This document shows positions 7,686 through 16,214 of a DNA stretch of 46,875 bases, piece by piece (within the stretch, counting starts at the first letter, position 1; the number at the start of each line of letters is the position of its first letter). A model generated the notes under the pieces. The model worked only from the letters and a program-made list of their open reading frames with translations. It was not told the origin of the DNA and ran no database searches. The stretch is from the IMG/VR virus record IMGVR_UViG_3300033068_001916. One strand, given 5' to 3'. The position numbers and the translations under genes were made by a program. This DNA is from a virus (lineage: Duplodnaviria; Heunggongvirae; Uroviricota; Caudoviricetes).

Positions 7686-7901
7686 GTGGATTTAAAACTA
7701 TTTTTTACATTAGAAATAAACGAATGGAGAAGGAGATGGGAATTTATACCTAATGATGATGTAAGTTCAATTTGTTATTCAGTCAGTTTTAGTGATGCAG
7801 AGAATGAGGATTCTGCCTGGGTAATACTAGATCGGGCTGTTAGAAAAAGTTCCTCGTTCCACTTCAAAAAATTTTATTTTATAGATATACTTAAAGAATG
7901 A
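7686..7901 (+). CDS. Hypothetical protein, last gene before the array
   Basis: 71 aa ORF, GTG start; resembles cassette ORF 11076..11261. Confidence 0.55.
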   Translation: MDLKLFFTLEINEWRRRWEFIPNDDVSSICYSVSFSDAENEDSAWVILDRAVRKSSSFHFKKFYFIDILKE

Positions 7902-7923
7902 CCACAAAACTTAAAATTAATAA

Positions 7924-7961
7924 AAACTTTATGTGGTATTTCACATATACCTTGTTATAAA
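7924..7961 (+). repeat. Half attC-like site H0 (right arm only)
   Basis: 37/38 nt identical to the right arm of H5 (9768-9805); no left arm upstream. Confidence 0.8.
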
Positions 7962-7972
7962 CTGTAAAAATT

Positions 7973-8176
7973 ATGAAATTAATAAAAAATATAGTAAAAA
8001 CTGATTTTATAACTTCTACAAATATACTTTTACTAAAAGGTCAGGAAGTTAGAACTATTTACACTCCTGATTCTGTTCACGGGGATAGATTTATAGATAT
8101 TTGGAGGTGCATTGATGGTTCGTATTGTGGTGGCTTAAATCCAAGATTAGAAGCTGATTATTTAGAAGAAATTTAA
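7973..8176 (+). CDS. Cassette ORF C1, hypothetical
   Basis: 67 aa, between GTTA 7954 and TAAC 8208. Confidence 0.65.
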   Translation: MKLIKNIVKTDFITSTNILLLKGQEVRTIYTPDSVHGDRFIDIWRCIDGSYCGGLNPRLEADYLEEI

Positions 8177-8207
8177 TATTAAACGCATTTTTGGATAAAC
8201 TTTTACA

Positions 8208-8336
8208 TAACGTTCGAGTGCTTTACGTCCGTTGTGGCTAAATAAGCACTAAACTTTCCTGTTATCACGAAATTAAACTGATGCAAAACAATAATTAAAT
8301 CAATCACAATGTAGCAATAGCGTGTAATTGCTGTTA
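8208..8336 (+). repeat. attC-like site H1 (129 bp, chimeric)
   Basis: Left 85 nt are 81/85 identical to H12, but the right arm differs and does not pair with the left arm. Confidence 0.75.
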
Positions 8337-8348
8337 TAAGTAGCTTTT

Positions 8349-8630
8349 ATGATTAGAAAATATAAAATAATAGCAGAAGTAGAAATAGATATTCAAAAGA
8401 TTTTTAAAGACAATATAAAAGATTATATAGAAGATGATAGTATTTCAGATGAAGCGTATGCAACTCAATCTATCTATGGCGTAATACGAGATGGATGTAC
8501 TGAACAAGTAAAGGATAGATGTGAGTGGATGTTTAAAGACTGTTACGACCAGATAAAGCACCATAAGGAAGTAGATGTTTTAATTGGTAAAGAAATACTA
8601 AAAAGTCTAAAGATAAACGTTATCGAGTAA
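8349..8630 (+). CDS. Cassette ORF C2, hypothetical
   Basis: Flanked by gttataagtaGct and agTtacttataac. Confidence 0.7.
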   Translation: MIRKYKIIAEVEIDIQKIFKDNIKDYIEDDSISDEAYATQSIYGVIRDGCTEQVKDRCEWMFKDCYDQIKHHKEVDVLIGKEILKSLKINVIE

Positions 8631-8639
8631 AGTTACTTA

Positions 8640-8767
8640 TAACGTTTCCACAGCTTTGCGAGGTTGCGACCTAAAAACTTAAAATTTACAAACACAAAAT
8701 ACACTTAAAATGAGCAAAAATATTTCAAATACAGACCAAACCAAGCAATCTTGCAAAATTGGTGTTA
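8640..8767 (+). repeat. attC-like site H2 (128 bp)
   Basis: tttgcgaggttgc pairs with gcaatcttgcaaa; contains ATG 8710. Confidence 0.8.
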
Positions 8768-8964
8768 GTGGCAGTCTTTCTAAACGTGAAAAGCTATCAC
8801 TTTTATCAGCCGATATTTTTGCAAGGAGAAAAGATTATAATTTTCATTTAACAAGTGAATTGTGTGCCGTTATTTGGCTTTTGGGTAAAGGAACTAAAAA
8901 CGAATATGATTGTAAGGAAATTATAAATTCTGTTTATTCACAGTTCTTTCAAGATTGCCACTAA
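8710..8964 (+). CDS. Cassette ORF C3 with hairpin-encoded leader
   Basis: Starts inside H2, reads through GTT as Val (KIG-VSGS), stops at the TAA of TAAC. Confidence 0.7.
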   Translation: MSKNISNTDQTKQSCKIGVSGSLSKREKLSLLSADIFARRKDYNFHLTSELCAVIWLLGKGTKNEYDCKEIINSVYSQFFQDCH

Positions 8965-9259
8965 CGGTTGCAAATAAAAATATGTAAAATTAACGGATAT
9001 GGAAGATAAACTAAAAAAACATTTGAATTTTTGTAAAAAGTATCCAGAAACAATAGTAGGATATGAACAAGGTATAAATGTTTCATATTATTTGATGGAA
9101 GGGAACACACCACAAGTGGATTATTTCAAGGTTGGTGATTTAGTTAAAATGTATAATGAAAATCCAAATGTTTTTTCTGAATATAAAAACTTAAAAGATG
9201 ATTGGAACGATTTAATAACCACTGAAGGTAGTTAATTTTATTGTTTTTATTTGTTGTTA
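8962..9259 (+). repeat. attC-like site H3 (298 bp) with an ORF in its loop
   Basis: Left arm caaataaaaatatgtaaaattaac pairs with right arm gttaattttattgtttttatttg. Confidence 0.75.
8999..9235 (+). CDS. ORF inside the loop of H3, hypothetical
   Basis: 78 aa; the stop TAA is supplied by the right arm. Confidence 0.65.
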   Translation: MEDKLKKHLNFCKKYPETIVGYEQGINVSYYLMEGNTPQVDYFKVGDLVKMYNENPNVFSEYKNLKDDWNDLITTEGS

Positions 9260-9284
9260 TGTTCTCGTTTTAATGGAACATAAC
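9256..9284 (+). other. Empty 29-bp inter-site segment C4
   Basis: gttatgttc-tcgttttaatg-gaacataac. Confidence 0.8.
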
Positions 9285-9407
9285 GTTGAAGCATAACTGT
9301 AGTTTAGGATAAGTAAGCCTAATCTATCGAAGTTAAAAACCAAGTTCACAAGTACAAAAACAATTATAAATCAAGCCTGATACCTAAATTACTGTTATGC
9401 AGTGTTA
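9281..9407 (+). repeat. attC-like site H4 (127 bp)
   Basis: gcataactgtagtttagg pairs with cctaaattactgttatgc. Confidence 0.8.
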
Positions 9408-9434
9408 GGGTTAGGTTTTTTAAACATTTACATT

Positions 9435-9719
9435 ATGAAAAGCGAGGAATATAGAATTGTATTAAACAATGTGTTTGAAACAAAAGAAATTGGAAAAGAA
9501 TATTTTGACAGAATTTTATTGGATTTTGCAATGGCATACCATAAAGAGCAATTAGGTATACTTAATGAAAACACTTTTAATAAAGAAAAGTTTGGCGAAT
9601 TAGCTATTATTTTTTTAAATGATTTGCAAAATAAAGAGATTAATTGTAAACATAATTTAGATATAAACGGAGAATGTTTAAATAATTTCTACCAATGGCT
9701 GTGTAAAAATTACAGCTAA
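9435..9719 (+). CDS. Cassette ORF C5, hypothetical
   Basis: ATG 9435; stops at the TAA of TAAC; segment ends only partly complementary. Confidence 0.65.
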   Translation: MKSEEYRIVLNNVFETKEIGKEYFDRILLDFAMAYHKEQLGILNENTFNKEKFGELAIIFLNDLQNKEINCKHNLDINGECLNNFYQWLCKNYS

Positions 9720-9801
9720 CGACTGGGTATATGTGAAGTACCCAACGACAGACTTAATAATTAGTAGAAACTTTATGGGGTATTTCACATATACCTTGTT
9801 A
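9717..9801 (+). repeat. attC-like site H5 (85 bp)
   Basis: ggtatatgtgaagtaccc pairs with gggtatttcacatatacc. Confidence 0.85.
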
Positions 9802-9816
9802 TAAAACGTTTATTTT

Positions 9817-10104
9817 ATGGTAGAATTTAAAAATCCTTTGGTTAGGGTAAGATGTTTGGAATGTAGAGAAGAACATTTTATTGAAATGAAACATATTGGA
9901 ACTGATAAAGAACAAAGAAGTATTGGTTTTGAATATGAACACATATATAGAGGTGAATTAAAATGTTCTCATTGTGGGGAAGATATGAGATTATTAACAA
10001 CGATATTTGAATTTCCAAAAGTATTTTTAAATTATCACGAAACGAATAATGAATCTTGTTTAGTGATGGATGATATTACAGATGATTCGTTAAATGTTTT
10101 ATAA
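9817..10104 (+). CDS. Cassette ORF C6, zinc-ribbon protein
   Basis: CLEC...CSHC; flanks gttataaaacGttta and taaaTgttttataac. Confidence 0.7.
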   Translation: MVEFKNPLVRVRCLECREEHFIEMKHIGTDKEQRSIGFEYEHIYRGELKCSHCGEDMRLLTTIFEFPKVFLNYHETNNESCLVMDDITDDSLNVL

Positions 10105-10361
10105 CGTTTTGCAAATAGGCTTAGTAAAATTAAACTTAATGAAATATAATTATGAAAGGCAAATTACGAGAAATTCAAGCATACAGTAGTAATTCAAGTG
10201 ATGAATTGGATTATAAAAATAAATACTGGTTTCATCAATGGATTGGAAAAACAACTGCTTTAATTGAAGATGAGCATGGGAAATTGATAAAAGCTAAACA
10301 CACAGAATTTCGTTTTAAGACGGATGCTGATGTTTAATTTTATTGAGCCTATTTGCTGTTA
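10102..10361 (+). repeat. attC-like site H6 (260 bp) with an ORF in its loop
   Basis: gcaaataggcttagtaaaattaaac pairs with gtttaattttattgagcctatttgc (two G:T). Confidence 0.8.
10152..10337 (+). CDS. ORF inside the loop of H6, hypothetical
   Basis: 61 aa; the stop is supplied by the right arm. Confidence 0.6.
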   Translation: MKGKLREIQAYSSNSSDELDYKNKYWFHQWIGKTTALIEDEHGKLIKAKHTEFRFKTDADV

Positions 10362-10386
10362 TGGCATCGTTTTAATGTACCATAAC
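10358..10386 (+). other. Empty 29-bp inter-site segment C7
   Basis: gttatggca-tcgttttaatg-taccataac. Confidence 0.8.
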
Positions 10387-10497
10387 GGTTTGCAGATAAA
10401 AGCAGTTTTAAACTAAAATTAAATAATATGGACGAAAGTAAAATTATGGAAGATAACTCAAATAGAAGTGATGAAAAATTGCTTTTATCTGCTGTTA
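10383..10497 (+). repeat. attC-like site H7 (115 bp)
   Basis: gcagataaaagcagtttt pairs with aaaattgcttttatctgc; contains ATG 10428. Confidence 0.85.
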
Positions 10498-10682
10498 TGC
10501 GTAGTGCTTCTGAAATAGAAGAACGACTACGATGTGCGTTGGCTGGATTTGAACACTCAAAAGAATGTGGTGATATTGAAACAGCAAAAGAATATCAGAA
10601 AGACGCTGGTGTTCTATTTTGGGTGTTGGGTCGTAGTGGTAGTTATGAATATAAGGATGGTAAAATTACGTTGTGTGATTAG
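10428..10682 (+). CDS. Cassette ORF C8 with hairpin-encoded leader
   Basis: Reads through GTT as Val (LSA-VMRS). Confidence 0.7.
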   Translation: MDESKIMEDNSNRSDEKLLLSAVMRSASEIEERLRCALAGFEHSKECGDIETAKEYQKDAGVLFWVLGRSGSYEYKDGKITLCD

Positions 10683-10691
10683 CATTACGCA

Positions 10692-10820
10692 TAACGTTTT
10701 GCAGCTTCATTTCAGTTGCGTACCTAAGCACAAAGAAAACAAATAATCACTTAATAAAATTTAAAAAAATGAACAATTCAGATACAAACCAAGCGAAGCA
10801 ATTGAATGAAACTGCTGTTA
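10692..10820 (+). repeat. attC-like site H8 (129 bp)
   Basis: gcagcttcatttcagttgc pairs with gcaattgaatgaaactgc; contains ATG 10769. Confidence 0.85.
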
Positions 10821-11071
10821 ACAGTAGTATTTTTTATAACGCTTTTATAGGTAAAAAAGATTCAAACGGAATTGAATTAAAAAACGGAGATAATATAATT
10901 ATTGAGGTTTGTAAGCCTGATGGTGCTAATAGAAATGGAGTTTACCACAAAGGACAAATAATATATGAAAATTGTTCTTTCTCAATTAAAATGAAAAGAA
11001 GTGAAGAAACATTTGATACAAATCCTTTATCAAATTATGCTTCATATTGTAAAATAAATTTAAACAATTAA
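10769..11071 (+). CDS. Cassette C9 ORF a with hairpin-encoded leader
   Basis: Reads through GTT as Val (ETA-VNSS). Confidence 0.7.
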   Translation: MNNSDTNQAKQLNETAVNSSIFYNAFIGKKDSNGIELKNGDNIIIEVCKPDGANRNGVYHKGQIIYENCSFSIKMKRSEETFDTNPLSNYASYCKINLNN

Positions 11072-11075
11072 TAAA

Positions 11076-11261
11076 ATGGACTTAAGAAAACAATTCAAAG
11101 TTACAGACGATGTAGATAATAAAAGATTCGTCTTTGATTCAGTAGACAATAATTCTTGTTCTTATACGGTTGCGTATTACGAATGTGATTCTGACGAGTC
11201 TAATGCTTGGATTTGTGTTTGGAAAGCGAAAAAAGGAGAAATTGAACGAGCTTCTGTTTAA
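11076..11261 (+). CDS. Cassette C9 ORF b, hypothetical
   Basis: Second ORF within one segment (gttaacagtaGtatt ... aataTtactgttaac). Confidence 0.6.
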   Translation: MDLRKQFKVTDDVDNKRFVFDSVDNNSCSYTVAYYECDSDESNAWICVWKAKKGEIERASV

Positions 11262-11270
11262 TATTACTGT

Positions 11271-11318
11271 TAACGTCTGATGATAAACAATCGTTTTAAT
11301 GTTGTTTATCATTTGTTA
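11271..11318 (+). repeat. attC-like site H9 (48 bp, minimal)
   Basis: atgataaacaa-tcgttttaatg-ttgtttatcat. Confidence 0.8.
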
Positions 11319-11385
11319 TGTGTAGTTATCATTCTGGAAACATCTTATAAAAATACAGATATAATAAACAAAAATAAATAAATAT

Positions 11386-11907
11386 ATGAAACTAATAAAC
11401 GAAACTTTCTTAATTGATACCTTTGATAAAGTATTAAAATCAGGTGATTTACAAAAATTGGTAAATGTTAAAAAATCAGAATCTAATGAATTAGAAGAAC
11501 ATTTGATTTCTATTTCAATTACTTCTGATCAACATAAATTGATTAGATCCCTGAATATAGATGAAAAAACGGAAGAGTATCTATTATCTGAGCTCAAAGA
11601 TTATTTTTTCAAAAAAATACTAGATTTTGTTTATTCCAACTCGACAATATTAGATAAGAACGAGTTGTATCAGAATATAGATAATCAAATAGTGATAGGT
11701 AGTTCTGGTGCAATTATGGATATTCCTGAAAATGTATCTACGATTTTAGATTATAATAAAAGTTTCAGTGACAAAACATTAGTAGTCACAGATAGTGTTG
11801 ATTTAATTTTAGATTACAATTCGATAAAAATACAAACAATTGGTATGGGAGGATTTGCTCCTAAGATGATTTTGAAATTTAGTTTTTGTTTAGCTGACAC
11901 AGAGTGA
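11386..11907 (+). CDS. Cassette ORF C10, hypothetical
   Basis: 173 aa; flanks pair at 16/18 plus two G:T. Confidence 0.7.
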   Translation: MKLINETFLIDTFDKVLKSGDLQKLVNVKKSESNELEEHLISISITSDQHKLIRSLNIDEKTEEYLLSELKDYFFKKILDFVYSNSTILDKNELYQNIDNQIVIGSSGAIMDIPENVSTILDYNKSFSDKTLVVTDSVDLILDYNSIKIQTIGMGGFAPKMILKFSFCLADTE

Positions 11908-11917
11908 TAATTACACA

Positions 11918-12046
11918 TAACGATACTCAGATATATTTAGGTTTTCATTTTTAATATATACTAAAAATAATTTAACAATATGAAAAATAATAAACATGTA
12001 GAAAGTTTCGGAAAATTCAATGAAAACTTGAATATATCTGATGTTA
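11918..12046 (+). repeat. attC-like site H10 (129 bp)
   Basis: tcagatatatttaggttttcatt pairs with aatgaaaacttgaatatatctga; loop contains ATATATACTA and ATG 11980. Confidence 0.85.
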
Positions 12047-12228
12047 GTGAGAGTAAAAAATCAAATCTAAAAATAAATAAATTTCTTGAGGAATTAACAA
12101 TAATATCTCAAAAGTATAATATTTATTTAGATACAACTGATGATATGTTTATGACTGATGATAGTGGTGATATTGGTAGTATTAAATATGACGACAATCT
12201 AAATAAATATATTTATCAGAAATATTGA
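11980..12228 (+). CDS. Cassette ORF C11 with capsid-targeting-like leader encoded by H10
   Basis: MKNNKHVESFGKFNENLNISD-VSES. Confidence 0.7.
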   Translation: MKNNKHVESFGKFNENLNISDVSESKKSNLKINKFLEELTIISQKYNIYLDTTDDMFMTDDSGDIGSIKYDDNLNKYIYQKY

Positions 12229-12242
12229 TTTTTAATTATCAC

Positions 12243-12360
12243 TAACGTTCGATGGCTTGTAGCAGAACGTATAATTAAAAACAAACATTACAGACACAAA
12301 AGAATTATTAACCAACGATGGCAAAGTAGCCTAAAGTAGTTTTGCTACAAACCATTGTTA
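12243..12360 (+). repeat. attC-like site H11 (118 bp)
   Basis: atggcttgtagcagaac pairs with gttttgctacaaaccat. Confidence 0.85.
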
Positions 12361-12374
12361 TAAACAGTTATTTT

Positions 12375-12680
12375 ATGATTATAGTAAACTATTACCGAGA
12401 AGAAGATTGCAACCCTGAAACAGATGGTTATCATTTGCATTTAGCTGGTGTAATAAACGATACTTTAGATTTGCAATATGATATACAATTAATTACAGAT
12501 TGTATTGATAACGATATTAATTTTGAACCTAAAAATGGTATTTTATACGAATTACAATTGACAAGAGCAACTATTCAAGCAGACCCAGTTGATGAGCCAG
12601 CTTTTGCAATTAGAGAAATTATTGAATTAAAAAGATGTAAACATACTGGCGAATTTTCTCCTGAGTTAGTTCGGCTATAA
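12375..12680 (+). CDS. Cassette ORF C12, hypothetical
   Basis: ATG 12375 (track ORF starts at TTG 12342). Confidence 0.65.
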   Translation: MIIVNYYREEDCNPETDGYHLHLAGVINDTLDLQYDIQLITDCIDNDINFEPKNGILYELQLTRATIQADPVDEPAFAIREIIELKRCKHTGEFSPELVRL

Positions 12681-12687
12681 TTGTTTA

Positions 12688-12816
12688 TAACGTTCGAGTG
12701 CTTTACGTCCGTTGTGGTTAAATAAGCACTAACCTTTCCTGTTATCACGAAACAAAACTGATGCAAAACAAATTTAATATTAAACCTAAACCCACAATGG
12801 CGTAAAACACTTGTTA
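12688..12816 (+). repeat. attC-like site H12 (129 bp)
   Basis: agtgctttacgtccgttgtgg pairs with ccacaatggcgtaaaacact. Confidence 0.85.
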
Positions 12817-12841
12817 TGCCTAGTGCTTAAAATCAGAAATT

Positions 12842-13096
12842 ATGCAAACAAAAAAAGGATGGCATAAATCAGGACTTGATTTAACAGAATATTTAGATGA
12901 ACCTTGTGAAATTAACGAGGAATTATTTAATTACATACTAGAATGTACAGCTCCACAATATTTAGATTACGGATTAGGACAAACTGGAGAAGCTGAAAAA
13001 CACGAAGATGGTGTTGGATATTATATGACAGTTTCTTTCGTAAATAACAAGCACTTTTATTTAGGAATTTTACCAGAGTTCGTTCAGTCGCATTAG
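12842..13096 (+). CDS. Cassette ORF C13, hypothetical
   Basis: Flanks gttatgcctaGtgc and gcaTtaggcataac. Confidence 0.7.
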   Translation: MQTKKGWHKSGLDLTEYLDEPCEINEELFNYILECTAPQYLDYGLGQTGEAEKHEDGVGYYMTVSFVNNKHFYLGILPEFVQSH

Positions 13097-13099
13097 GCA

Positions 13100-13228
13100 T
13101 AACGGACGGCGTGTATGAGAAGTGGCGTGCCCACAAACACTAATATTAACTAAAAAACACTAACAAACCCAATAAATACAGTATTTAACAAGTGTGCCCA
13201 AAGTAGCCATTTTTTATACACGATGTTA
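13100..13228 (+). repeat. attC-like site H13 (129 bp)
   Basis: cgtgtatgagaagtggc pairs with gccattttttatacacg. Confidence 0.85.
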
Positions 13229-13258
13229 GTAGCTGTGTTTATTAAAGAATTTTAAAAT

Positions 13259-13483
13259 ATGGGAGATTTATTAGAATTAATGCAAGAATTTGAAAAAAGA
13301 AACAACACTTCAATATCCTTAGATTTATGTAGTGATGGGTCAGGAACTTTAAAAGAGTTTTGGGATGGTGATGAAATAAAATCGTTTGAAAATTCGTCTG
13401 AATTACGCTCGTTTTTAGCGAACGGAAAATTGAAAATGAAAGATGGTCGTTCTGTTAAACCTATTAAGATAGTGGCTCAATAA
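13259..13483 (+). CDS. Cassette ORF C14, hypothetical
   Basis: Flanks gttagtagctGtgtt and aacaTagctactaac. Confidence 0.7.
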   Translation: MGDLLELMQEFEKRNNTSISLDLCSDGSGTLKEFWDGDEIKSFENSSELRSFLANGKLKMKDGRSVKPIKIVAQ

Positions 13484-13492
13484 CATAGCTAC

Positions 13493-13618
13493 TAACGTTT
13501 TGCTACTACAAGCAGTAGCGTGCTGAAAAGCCTAAATTATCGGAGTTTGCCCGAACAAAGCAAGTGCAAAAAAATAATAACCAAAGCCAAATGAAGCTAT
13601 TGATTGTAGTAGCTGTTA
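13493..13618 (+). repeat. attC-like site H14 (126 bp)
   Basis: gctactacaagcagtagc pairs with gctattgattgtagtagc. Confidence 0.85.
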
Positions 13619-13645
13619 TACAACGGTTTTTAAACATCATTAATT

Positions 13646-13915
13646 ATGAAAACTAATAAACAATATAGATTTAAAGACAATCCAAAAGAAAAAGAATTTC
13701 ACGATAAATTCAAAGAAATGTTTGAAAGTAACGGAGTGACAGATAAAACTCTTTCATCAATAGTTTTTGGATGGAAAGATGATAGACAAAATGTTCCTGC
13801 AAAATATCTAACAGAAAAAGAAAAAGATATTTGCTTAAATATAATACAATGGTTAGGTTCTCCTGTTGGAAGCGGATTTCTTCGTGACTGCGGATTTTCT
13901 GAAACTGTTGTATAA
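13646..13915 (+). CDS. Cassette ORF C15 (recombinase-proximal), hypothetical
   Basis: Flanks gttatacaacGgttt and aaacTgttgtataac; stops at the TAA of TAAC. Confidence 0.7.
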   Translation: MKTNKQYRFKDNPKEKEFHDKFKEMFESNGVTDKTLSSIVFGWKDDRQNVPAKYLTEKEKDICLNIIQWLGSPVGSGFLRDCGFSETVV

Positions 13916-13968
13916 CTATATTATATATGTAATAAAATGTAACCCGTTAATTTTCAACAAGTTATATA
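13913..13968 (+). other. Candidate attI-like insertion site
   Basis: TAAC not followed by the usual hairpin; contains aaaatgtaac-cc-gttaatttt and a GTTA 8 nt before the recombinase ATG. Confidence 0.45.
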
Positions 13969-14772
13969 ATGAAAAATCAAAAAATTATAAAGATCTGTAA
14001 AGAAAAGTTTATATATTTAAACTATTCACCTAGAACAAGAGATAATTATATATCTCACATAAAACATTTTTTAGAAAGCTTAGAGGATAAACAGATCGTA
14101 CATTGTAATTCTTCTGATTTTCAATCATATTTGGATAATTACGACTTTACATCAGTCTCTCAACAAAACCAAATTATTAACTCTATTAGATTCTTATACA
14201 AAGAAGTATTGAATAAAAAGTATGATAAAGTTTCCTTTAGGAGGCCTAGATCCGAAAAGAAATTACCTAAAGTAATAGATGGTAATTTTATTAAAAAACA
14301 ATTAGGTAGTATTAAAAATCTAAAACATAAAGCGATACTCACCTTAACATATTCAGTCGGATTAAGAGTCTCCGAAATAGTAAATCTAAAAATTATAGAT
14401 ATTGATTCTAAAAGAATGTTAATTCATATAAAAAATGCTAAAGGTCGAAAAGATAGAATTGTACCTTTATCTCAAATTGTTTTAGAACTATTAAGAGAAT
14501 ATTTCAAAGAATATAAACCAAAAGAATTCTTATTCAATGGTCAAAACTCCCTACAATACTCAGTAGGGAGCTGTCAAAAGATTTACAAAAAGTATATCGA
14601 TAATAAATCATCTATACACACTTTAAGGCATTCCTCATTCACAAATTTATTAGAATCGGGGACAGATTTAAGAATAATACAGAAGATTGCGGGACATTCG
14701 AGTTCAAAAACAACAGAAATTTATACTCACGTTTCTAACAACCTTTTATCCAGGGTTAAATTACCAATATAA
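13969..14772 (+). CDS. Tyrosine recombinase/integrase, compact Xer-like, putative cassette integrase
   Basis: Intact catalytic set: GLRVSE, AKGRKDR, HTLRH, AGH, EIY; N-terminal SAM-like region YSPRTRDNY; no IntI insertion. Confidence 0.95.
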   Translation: MKNQKIIKICKEKFIYLNYSPRTRDNYISHIKHFLESLEDKQIVHCNSSDFQSYLDNYDFTSVSQQNQIINSIRFLYKEVLNKKYDKVSFRRPRSEKKLPKVIDGNFIKKQLGSIKNLKHKAILTLTYSVGLRVSEIVNLKIIDIDSKRMLIHIKNAKGRKDRIVPLSQIVLELLREYFKEYKPKEFLFNGQNSLQYSVGSCQKIYKKYIDNKSSIHTLRHSSFTNLLESGTDLRIIQKIAGHSSSKTTEIYTHVSNNLLSRVKLPI

Positions 14773-16214
14773 TGACTACGAAGAGAAAGAAAAAACCAAT
14801 AGTTGATATAGATGTTCTAAATTCAGATCAAAGGGAAGCTTTTGAAAATCTGAGAGACTTTATATGCGACACCAGTGACGAAAATGTTTATGTTCTTAAA
14901 GGATGGGCAGGTACAGGTAAAACATTTTGTATAAGTGTTCTTGTTAGGTACATTTTAGAAGTCGTTCATCCCAAAAGTGCTTGGTATAAGATAGCTGTAA
15001 CCGGACCAACAAACAAGTCGGTTAGAGTTATAAAGAAAACTAGTAATCTTAGGAATCCTAGAGTTACGTTCCAAACTATACACAAACTTCTTGGACTAAC
15101 AGAGAAGATAACAAATGATGGGCAACAGGTTTTTGTGAATCAGGGGAAAAATTTCAAACCTCAGATCAACTCGATTAAGCTTTTAATTATAGATGAGGTT
15201 TCAATGCTTAATGATGAACTTTTCCACGAGGTTCTTAAATATAGAGACAAGCTAAAGATTATCTGTATGGGAGATCCCGCACAAATCCCGCCGGTTGGAA
15301 AACCTGACTGTATTCCCTTCAGAGACGAGCTAGCAGATGTATATGGTATAAAAACTATCCAGCTGAAAAGAATAATGAGACAGAAGGAGGGTAATGCAAT
15401 AATAGAATCATCCGTTAAAATTAGAGAGGATCTTTGGTCTGAAAGAAATCCGGTTCCCACAGTTACGTCTTTGAATAGCCTAGGTGAGGGTGTAGAATTT
15501 TTAAATCTCAACGATAGTGAAACCAGAAAAGGATTTGGTGATATACTTTCCAAATATTTTAAATCTGAAGAATTCAACAAGGATCCTGAATATTGCAAAA
15601 TAATCGCATGGAGGAATAAAACTGTTACCAGCATGAATAACATCGTCAGAAGGATTCTTTTTGGCGAGGAAGAGAGTAAAACAAAAATTTTGGTAGGTGA
15701 GAAATTGATTGCCAATACACCTATAATCATACAGGGAAATCTTATATTATTTAATACCAATGATGAATTTTCAGTTGAATCGACAAATATAAGAGAAAAA
15801 AATATGGCTCTTAAAACATTCTCCCCCGTTGTCGAGGTTAAACTAAAATATTATGATGCAGTTGTTAGTTATCTGAATGACGAAGACGAGATTGAAAAAA
15901 CATCAATAGAGATTCTCCACGAGGACAGTCAGATCGAATTTGCTAAGATTGCAAATCTTCTTAAATTGAAGGCGATAGAAAAAAAAGGTAGAGACAGGAG
16001 CTGGCTTGATTATTATGATTTTATGAGAAACTTTGCTGATGTGAGCTTTGCATATGCTATAACTGCACACAAAAGTCAGGGAAGTACATATAACACGACA
16101 TTTGTAATTGAGGATGATATCGACGAAAACTATAATGTCGTTGAAAGAAATAGGATTAAGTATACTGCTTATACAAGATCAAGCAAGAAAGTTTATGTTT
16201 TAAAAAGATTTTAA
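14772..16214 (+). CDS. dda: SF1B DNA helicase, Dda/RecD2-like
   Basis: GWAGTGKT, IIDEVSM, GDPAQIPPV, YAITAHKSQGST, YTAYTR. Confidence 0.85.
   Translation: MTTKRKKKPIVDIDVLNSDQREAFENLRDFICDTSDENVYVLKGWAGTGKTFCISVLVRYILEVVHPKSAWYKIAVTGPTNKSVRVIKKTSNLRNPRVTFQTIHKLLGLTEKITNDGQQVFVNQGKNFKPQINSIKLLIIDEVSMLNDELFHEVLKYRDKLKIICMGDPAQIPPVGKPDCIPFRDELADVYGIKTIQLKRIMRQKEGNAIIESSVKIREDLWSERNPVPTVTSLNSLGEGVEFLNLNDSETRKGFGDILSKYFKSEEFNKDPEYCKIIAWRNKTVTSMNNIVRRILFGEEESKTKILVGEKLIANTPIIIQGNLILFNTNDEFSVESTNIREKNMALKTFSPVVEVKLKYYDAVVSYLNDEDEIEKTSIEILHEDSQIEFAKIANLLKLKAIEKKGRDRSWLDYYDFMRNFADVSFAYAITAHKSQGSTYNTTFVIEDDIDENYNVVERNRIKYTAYTRSSKKVYVLKRF

Follow-up and report, generated by a model that had tools for sequence, protein, structure and literature searches.

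The window considered here, a stretch of 46,875 nucleotides (nt) from IMG/VR virus record IMGVR_UViG_3300033068_001916 (Caudoviricetes), is a densely coding phage sequence of approximately 33% G+C with genes located mostly on the plus strand and without tRNA genes, and its closest DNA matches are Flavobacterium phages. From approximately position 7950 to 13916 it contains a row of small plus-strand open reading frames (ORFs), which are separated by long imperfect hairpins and followed by a gene for an Xer/IntI-like tyrosine recombinase (Table 1). This region is probably an array of integron-like cassettes with mirror-image polarity, located directly upstream of the co-directional recombinase gene, in which each hairpin would move together with the gene behind it and in many cases supply the start codon and the N-terminal leader of the gene product.

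All hairpins are built according to the same plan: (A)TAACG is followed by 4-5 unpaired nt, an imperfect stem of 15-25 bp, an A-rich loop of 60-90 nt, the return arm, and T-GTTA. The pentamer TAACG occurs 19 times in this region (5.4 expected), and 14 sites, designated H1 to H14, fold as TAACG...TGTTA hairpins in which inverted AAC and GTT cores close an imperfect hairpin, as in attC sites; the bulge asymmetry of the window sites is unlike that of attC. All 14 sites are recovered by a detector based on duplex energy, which replaced an earlier ungapped-stem detector that had missed H1 and H2.

Table 1 Sites, loop-start cassette ORFs, and recombinase gene of the array
Feature	Position	Strand	Remarks
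Site H1	8208-8336	+	Gene start after core, 8349
Site H2	8640-8767	+	ATG 8710 in loop; detector energy -21.1 kcal/mol
H2 cassette ORF, 84 aa	8710-8964	+	GTT 8764 = Val; stop = TAA of next TAAC (8962)
Site H3	8962-9259	+	Loop encloses whole ORF 8999-9235
Site H4	9281-9407	+	Gene start after core
Site H5	9717-9801	+	Gene start after core
Site H6	10102-10361	+	Loop encloses whole ORF 10152-10337
Site H7	10383-10497	+	ATG 10428 in loop
H7 cassette ORF, 84 aa	10428-10682	+	GTT 10494 = Val
Site H8	10692-10820	+	ATG 10769 in loop
H8 cassette ORF, 100 aa	10769-11071	+	GTT 10817 = Val; second ORF 11076-11261 in same cassette
Site H9	11271-11318	+	Gene start after core
Site H10	11918-12046	+	ATG 11980 in loop; widespread site family, 3' arm encodes LNISDV
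H10 cassette ORF, 82 aa	11980-12228	+	GTT 12043 = Val
Site H11	12243-12360	+	3-codon ORF ATG 12318 - GCA - AAG - TAG 12327, in frame with GTT 12357 and ATG 12375
Site H12	12688-12816	+	Gene start after core
Site H13	13100-13228	+	Gene start after core
Site H14	13493-13618	+	Loop ATG 13591, 21-codon ORF through GTT 13615, ends 13656
Last array TAAC and conserved stretch before recombinase start	13913-13968	+	Likely primary insertion site
Xer/IntI-like tyrosine recombinase, 267 aa	13969-14772	+	Downstream of cassettes, co-directional

In sites H2, H7, H8, and H10, an ATG in the loop opens a frame that passes through the 3' arm, reads the GTT of the core as valine, and continues into the gene body, with the junction peptides KIG-VSGS, LSA-VMRS, ETA-VNSS, and ISD-VSES, respectively; the ORF translations agree exactly with a preliminary description of this DNA, which had pointed out these frames. 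Three of these four loop-start ORFs contain no later ATG near the junction, the exception being H7, where the rival start ATG 10497 (within GTTATG) has a poor start context. The loop ATG of H2 is preceded by AAAA at positions -14 to -11 and by A at -3. In 10 of the 13 window segments, the TAA of TAAC shares the frame of the preceding ORF, so that the pattern given in the preliminary description stands with a corrected count (9 of 13 had been reported), and this TAA is the real stop codon for H3, H5, H6, and the last cassette. The 21-codon ORF that had been described for H14 is likewise present; it overlaps ATG 13646 by 11 nt and is in another frame than the ORF starting there (13646-13915), and no H14 homologue was found among the fetched related contigs. 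The short ORF in H11, which had been taken for a broken leader, is present and in frame, and that interpretation is plausible: H11 and a site of Flavobacterium phage hemulen6-1 share 83% identity, and in the latter the ATG at the same position is directly followed by TAA. The H11 gene most likely starts at ATG 12375, and the out-of-frame leader ORF of H14 and the stopped leader of H11 may be relics of leader-type sites placed before self-starting bodies.

Within the window alone, approximately 4 of the 12 long sites have a loop ATG that reads through the core, compared to approximately 2 expected from the rate in shuffled loops, which is not significant; since this number is within chance, related arrays were examined. 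IMG/VR contains 210 stretches encoding a relative of the recombinase, of which 80 (62-87% identical, on contigs of up to 362 kb) were kept, and the site census comprised 82 sequences with a recombinase match, i.e., the fetched loci (cited below by L numbers) and the window. The detector found 417 sites upstream and 35 downstream of the recombinase genes (0.82 versus 0.05 per kb, a 17-fold difference), the density being highest beside the gene. In 153 of the 417 upstream sites, the frame of a loop ATG crosses the core and stays open for 25 or more codons beyond it, with the core read as GTT (Val) in 108, as xxG-TTA (Leu) in 37, and as xGT-TAY in 8 of them, part of the calls in 48-nt sites being spurious. 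For sites of 110-199 nt, 134 of 211 read through, compared to 37±4 (maximum 49) after shuffling of the loops. Of 247 cassettes, 140 have the TAA of TAAC in frame, with peaks at 0 nt (60 cassettes) and +12 nt (46 cassettes). The valine is preceded by Asp or Ala and followed by Ser, Met, Ile, or Arg, then any residue, and then Ser (73) or Arg (24), owing to an AGT or CGT conserved at +9 to +11; the junction motif proposed from the window, [AGD]-V-[SMNI]-x-S, is real and takes the form D/A-V-S/M/I/R-x-S/R in the relatives. One site family is that of H10, whose 3' arm was found in 35 copies, 34 of which are in frame from a loop ATG located 19-28 codons upstream into ORFs of 55-112 aa. By eye, the bodies behind these arms differ, and in tblastn with the window ORF the alignments are limited to the first 25-41 residues, while all but one of the ORFs end 0-25 nt before the next TAAC. 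Judged from these sequences, the loop-start leader is a general pattern that occurs far more often than expected by chance among the relatives, with shared ancestry of the sites as a caveat. A single N-terminal "tag" common to all of them was rejected, as the leaders belong to many unrelated families and a crude N-terminal motif was only about twofold enriched.

The nucleotide context of the loop ATGs is that of a start site. In the related arrays, A has a frequency of 0.61-0.74 at positions -14 to -11 and of 0.64 at position -3 of the loop starts, the starts downstream of the core have the same profile, and all other ATGs of the arrays show a flat A frequency of approximately 0.38. This profile matches the A-rich upstream signature of start sites determined in F. 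johnsoniae by ribosome profiling and reporters, where initiation depends on an A-rich and unpaired upstream sequence (PMC6847099), and supports the proposal that the loops could serve Shine-Dalgarno-independent initiation in Flavobacterium.

The leaders appear to be under two different kinds of constraint. In the H10 family, 6 of 19 stem pairs show compensatory changes (29 copies), and in its MK-type subfamily (12 distinct leaders) pS amounts to 0.045 in the seven stem-encoded codons and to 0.51 in the loop-encoded codons, for which pN/pS is 0.53. The last seven or so codons of the leader would therefore be dictated by the DNA arm, since their synonymous sites are nearly frozen and the non-coding 5' arm carries compensatory changes, whereas in the first 14 or so codons the A-rich loop gives rise to a hydrophilic sequence that seems to be only weakly constrained. 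The H7 leader differs from its counterpart in L069 in 2 of 69 nt, both nonsynonymous (own count, alignment A2), with the body being visibly more diverged; it is open and free of indels in L069, the only two indels being located just upstream of the ATG. For the H8 family, AlphaFold2 predicts a beta-rich fold from approximately residue 26 onwards, with a predicted local distance difference test score (pLDDT) of 47-51 for residues 1-20 and of 84-92 for most of the rest, so that the leader is modelled as an appendage to a folded protein.

Several types of leaders and gene heads were noticed in the related arrays. Leu-frame leaders of L021 (5284), L008 (302), and L072 (1547) resemble lipoprotein signals by eye, with a basic N-terminus followed by hydrophobic residues from the 3' arm and the core and then by L-S-S-C or F-G-C. 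The N-terminus M-K-x-L/I-K-x-I/F-K-x-F-N/E-E recurs on H10-type loop leaders, on cassette genes starting after the core, and on genes outside the arrays in this and related phages (window 25605, 42233, 43389, and 44219; L031 9207, L022 9552, and others); it recalls the capsid-targeting sequence of T4, which is carried by internal virion proteins and cleaved off by the prohead protease, at a weak, approximately twofold enrichment, and the H10-type leader shows only weak similarities to the N-termini of window ORFs 25605 and 44219. In L034 (6328-6497), L052 (896-1068), L072 (519-701), L035 (8436-8607), and L069 (9307-9477), a non-coding stretch of approximately 115 nt is conserved after GTTA, and the first 17 or so codons of these larger cassettes (135-283 aa) are conserved as well before the sequences diverge, with different site families in front. 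This conserved segment is another portable gene head, located outside the hairpin.

The extent of the mobile unit can be read from arrays that have exchanged cassettes. The Flavobacterium phages lillamy9-1 and lillamy9-3, both of 38,268 bp, differ in their array region by the translocation of a single unit of approximately 440 nt (L003 4030-4473; L004 5040-5483) and are 100% identical over the rest of it. The unit begins after ATAAC, continues with a hairpin site and a 95-aa ORF, and ends in ATAAC, one ATAAC being retained at both donor and target; the lillamy9 sites are 77-84% identical to H1, H11, and H12 of the window. This lillamy9 array is also rich in DNA methyltransferase genes. Likewise, H5 and its ORF (9709-10112) are 88% identical to L046 6867-7271, with similarity extending from ATAACG to the next ATAAC, the whole H7 cassette (10382-10696) is approximately 90% identical to L069 8553-8865, with ATAAC at both ends, and L024 and L072 share a 315-nt unit that is 100% identical from core to core. 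Among 66 pairs of similar bodies (at least 85% identity), 37 are located in syntenic blocks; in the 27 pairs that are isolated or at the edge of a block, the upstream site is kept in all 27 and the downstream site differs in 18, and only two of the 66 pairs share the body alone. A body accompanied by its downstream but not its upstream site, as expected for the classical polarity of an ORF plus 3' site, was looked for and found in none of the 66 pairs. In the H7 family, leader and body diverge together, e.g., in L060. Taken together, these alignments indicate that the usual mobile unit is a hairpin with the ORF downstream of it, running from TAAC to TAAC, and that the crossover takes place in the 5' TAAC core, so that a leader would belong to its own gene and would not be given by the cassette in front. 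The isolates Freya_10 and Freya_1 of Polaribacter phages (L001 1-4097 and L088), which encode a homologous recombinase (35% identity), differ by at least 4.1 kb and up to 4.9 kb inserted directly upstream of the recombinase gene (only the recombinase-proximal junction was examined), and the junction follows AAC and lies approximately 50 nt ahead of the recombinase start codon. The window has the same arrangement, and similarity to most other contigs starts there at 13906-13913.

We therefore favor, as the likely explanation, a reading in which site and gene move as a unit and the loop-start leader is part of its own gene; frames, start contexts, boundaries, and covariation are taken directly from the sequence, whereas translation of the leaders and catalysis of the exchanges by the recombinase are inferred. 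A cassette would begin just after one TAA|C and end at the next, comprising its own folded site and then the gene body. Because the site stands at the 5' end of its own cassette, the translation start must lie within the site or just behind it. In approximately 60% of the long sites, ribosomes would start at the ATG in the unpaired A-rich loop, the leader forming the first 16-22 codons in the window, and would then read the 3' arm, the core (with GTT as Val in most cases), a 9-nt flank (x-x-Ser/Arg), and the body. The stem of 20-25 bp should also form in the mRNA; with a start in the loop, initiation would take place on unpaired RNA, and the 3' arm would be melted by the ribosome during elongation. 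In integrons, attC hairpins in the mRNA impede ribosomes, which is relieved by the translation of a short ORF in the site (PMC8876359); given this block and the requirement of F. johnsoniae for an unpaired A-rich upstream region, an ATG in the loop would meet both needs. A start just after GTTA, as in H1, H4, H5, H9, H12, and H13, would represent the other solution, and the ORFs lying entirely within the loops of H3 and H6 the extreme case. GTTA may act as a second, rarer exchange point, which now and then would create new in-frame pairs of leader and body.

Several observations weigh against this reading or limit it. The start codon was taken as the first in-frame ATG, so that ORFs may be over-extended, and since the copies of a site share ancestry, the counts do not represent independent events. 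In a second leader subfamily (n=6), the loop-encoded codons have a pN/pS of 0.82, which is near neutral. The Lillamyvirus phages, which provide the cleanest boundary, have no recognizable recombinase: their annotation lists none, and a look at gp001 and gp003 revealed none; the cassette there would have been moved by an enzyme acting in trans or by another route. Furthermore, joint movement offers no explanation for one site family standing on so many bodies, and the sharp end of similarity at GTTA together with the occurrence of the H8 body behind another site shows that site and body are not always inherited together.

The last two points lead to the model of the preliminary description, in which the crossover occurs at GTT and the leader belongs to the cassette in front, thus acting as a routinely swapped N-terminal tag. 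This model, which we consider unlikely, would account for the presence of the same leader family on many bodies, in frame in 34 of 35 cases, and for the behavior of similarity restricted to the sites: 1161 site pairs are at least 85% identical, compared to 64 in which the body is also shared, and the similarity is sharply bounded by (A)TAAC on the left and by GTTA(T), i.e., GTTA or 1-2 nt later, on the right. A further case is L086, in which the segment that begins with TGTTA and extends over both ORFs up to the next TAACG is approximately 97% identical to the H8 cassette of the window, while the hairpin in front of it belongs to a different family and is only about 55% identical (own counts, alignment A6); the break lies at TGTTA, and both versions are in frame across Val-Asn-Ser-Ser. 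Three further cases of a body behind a different site were found in the relatives in addition to the two body-only pairs mentioned above, and a protein database search with H8 retrieved homologues having other leaders, a shorter leader, or no leader at all (P0009 and P0011 are leaderless). The out-of-frame ORF of H14 also resembles a leader-type site placed before a self-starting body. Against this, all units that were recently shared or moved run from TAAC to TAAC with the upstream site kept and never the downstream site alone, and leader and body of the H7 family diverge together. A crossover at GTT thus fails as the routine mechanism but may be a rare second pathway. The alignments suggest that heads and bodies have been re-assorted at GTTA as a minority pattern, which may have come about by exchange of the other strand, genesis of cassettes, or some other route.

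What remains of the portable module proposed in the preliminary description follows from this: the same leader does occur on many bodies and the H8 body does occur behind another leader, but GTT is not the usual crossover point, the leader normally rides with its own ORF, and there is not one tag. As an expression module, the site offers a translation start but no host-type promoter motif in the loops. In the window, the -7 motif of Bacteroidota promoters, TAnnTTTG, has 70 matches compared to 60±8 expected, with one plus-strand match inside a site (12337, in the 3' arm of H11); the motif, which covers host-type promoters only, is thus not enriched and was rejected as evidence for a promoter in the loops. 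A TAATATATA box that is conserved in H10-type loops was also rejected as a general phage promoter (42 matches in the window, 63 expected).

With more reserve, and as a rather unlikely reading, T-GTTA can be viewed as a joint with a fixed frame, at which occasional exchange would shuffle N-terminal heads among bodies, a form of exon shuffling at the DNA level in phages, with the dominant frame keeping the swaps productive; this is a tentative proposal. The heads would then comprise hydrophilic leaders, lipoprotein-type signal peptides, and possibly virion-targeting tags.

A second alternative holds that the leaders are not made, that translation starts downstream of GTTA, and that the open frames are a by-product of A-rich loops poor in stop codons. 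The ATG within GTTATG of H7, the leaderless homologues P0009 and P0011, and the pN/pS close to 1 in one leader family would fit, but we regard this as very improbable in view of the excess over shuffled loops of the same composition (134 compared to 37±4), the lack of a later ATG near the junction in three of the four window ORFs, the A signature that is present on loop start ATGs and not on other loop ATGs, the 34 of 35 frames kept open into different bodies, and the indel-free H7 leader with two indels just upstream of its ATG. Least probable of all is that the hairpins act solely as RNA in processing, termination, or translational control, like the RNase III sites of T7 or the stem-loops termed PeSLs of T4-type phages, with exchange by homologous recombination. 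Folding of the long stems in mRNA, the PeSLs around shuffled small ORFs in T4-type phages (PMC2839356), and the lack of a recombinase in Lillamyvirus arrays would fit this view, but the junctions lie in a 5-nt ATAAC core common to otherwise dissimilar sites, the arrays of the relatives border on a tyrosine recombinase gene, upstream of which sites are 17-fold enriched, the inverted AAC...GTT cores are similar to those of attC, the loops contain no host promoter motif, and a search of Rfam with 7800-14000 gave no match at E≤1; a role as RNA could coexist with recombination.

An integron cassette consists of a promoterless ORF and a 3' attC site, and the recombination site is regarded as non-coding. 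The array studied here resembles integrons in its stacked single-gene cassettes, in imperfect hairpins with inverted AAC...GTT cores, in the adjacent tyrosine recombinase gene, in a crossover that would fall within the 5'-arm AAC core of one strand, and in an insertion point beside the recombinase gene. The orientation of the hairpins relative to that gene, with the AA|C arm first and the gene co-directional at the end, is that of an integron read on the bottom strand. In contrast to integrons, the genes are located on the strand of the 5' AAC arm, so that the site precedes the gene, the bulge is on the 5' arm, the recombinase gene is downstream and co-directional, and most long sites hold a gene start and a leader. 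The recombinase is composed of the domains SAM_4 and Phage_integrase and scores below every curated NCBIfam cut-off (XerA, 169 of 220 bits; IntI TIGR02249, 151 of 265 bits in two stretches; PRK15417, 103 of 435 bits). In the PDB, its alignment to VchIntIA (2a3v) is split in two, and the best match is the XerC-like 4a8e, consistent with the absence of the IntI-specific insertion from the 267-aa protein. Of four testable integron features, three are absent: the IntI insertion, the order of ORF and then attC with a G|TT crossover, and a divergent integrase gene with attI and Pc. A conserved stretch of 55 nt after the last TAAC may be a candidate attI; no promoter was identified. The window is not a cluster of attC sites lacking an integron integrase (CALIN), as the recombinase gene begins 54 nt after the last core, whereas the homologous Lillamyvirus arrays fit that class.

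Related phenomena have been described. Clusters of attC-like sites have been reported in virulent phages, one of them infecting Polaribacter (Qi et al. 2023, PMC9892861). In attI1, ORF-11 takes a start codon across the site of crossover and promotes translation of the first cassette, and ORF-17, ORF-18, and short ORFs of attC sites act likewise (Hanau-Bercot 2002; Jacquier 2009; reviewed in PMC8876359). As in attI1, the sites studied here have their own start codon and an ORF across the core, and the 21-codon ORF of H14, which overlaps the next ATG, may be a coupling leader of the ORF-11 type. The ORFs of attI1 and attC, however, encode short peptides that end at the core or directly behind it and work by coupling, whereas here the frame mostly runs on to form the N-terminal part of the cassette protein, and the start-bearing site is a single attI in the case of ORF-11 and most of the long sites here. 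In large lytic phages of the T4 type, PeSLs are repeated stem-loops that border small accessory ORFs in hyperplastic regions and mark modular exchange (Arbiol et al. 2010, PMC2839356; PMC4122927). PeSLs are promoter-terminator motifs that act with homologous recombination and no dedicated recombinase, whereas the present sites have AAC/GTT cores, an adjacent recombinase gene, and no host promoter motif. The attP site of CTX-phi, used with XerCD, shows that an Xer-type recombinase can act on a forked hairpin of one strand by a single strand exchange; there, the whole phage integrates at dif, no cassette arrays are formed, and the site encodes no protein. In the literature searched, we found no description of sites at the 5' ends of cassettes or of genes starting inside sites.

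Some further features of the array deserve mention. At its left edge (7925-7960) the window contains a half site, in which the 3' arm and GTTAT of an H5-type site are present but the TAAC arm is missing; it is matched by full-length H5-type sites in eight contigs. Inverted repeats bracket each gene body and extend the GTTA/TAAC cores to 10-22 bp (11315-11336 with 11900-11921, 12813 with 13095, 8333 with 8636, and 8764 with 8956), so that the long closing helix of a site would form only once the two ends of the same cassette come together, as they would in an excised circle. H3 and H6 (8962-9285 and 10102-10387) are each followed by an "empty" body of 29 nt, which folds into a small hairpin with TCGTTTTAATG as its conserved loop. 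This loop motif also makes up the minimal 48-nt site H9 (11271-11318), whose family is more frequent than any other in the related contigs; it has dozens of matches, generally at 88-100% identity, and the majority begin exactly at 11271. Other products of the window are a Dda-like helicase (14772-16214), a T4-type RNA ligase, and glycosyltransferases.

In these phages, one DNA segment apparently serves both as a folded recombination substrate and as coding sequence, and the overlap of structural and coding constraint makes it a testable case. The system with the site before the gene is widespread in large phages of Flavobacteriia, as judged from the IMG/VR stretches with a recombinase relative, and it would explain the odd N-termini that are common to many small phage proteins. 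For annotation, it means that gene starts would have to be placed inside hairpins that appear "intergenic". If exchange at GTTA does take place, these phages would possess a natural mechanism for building new proteins from heads and bodies.

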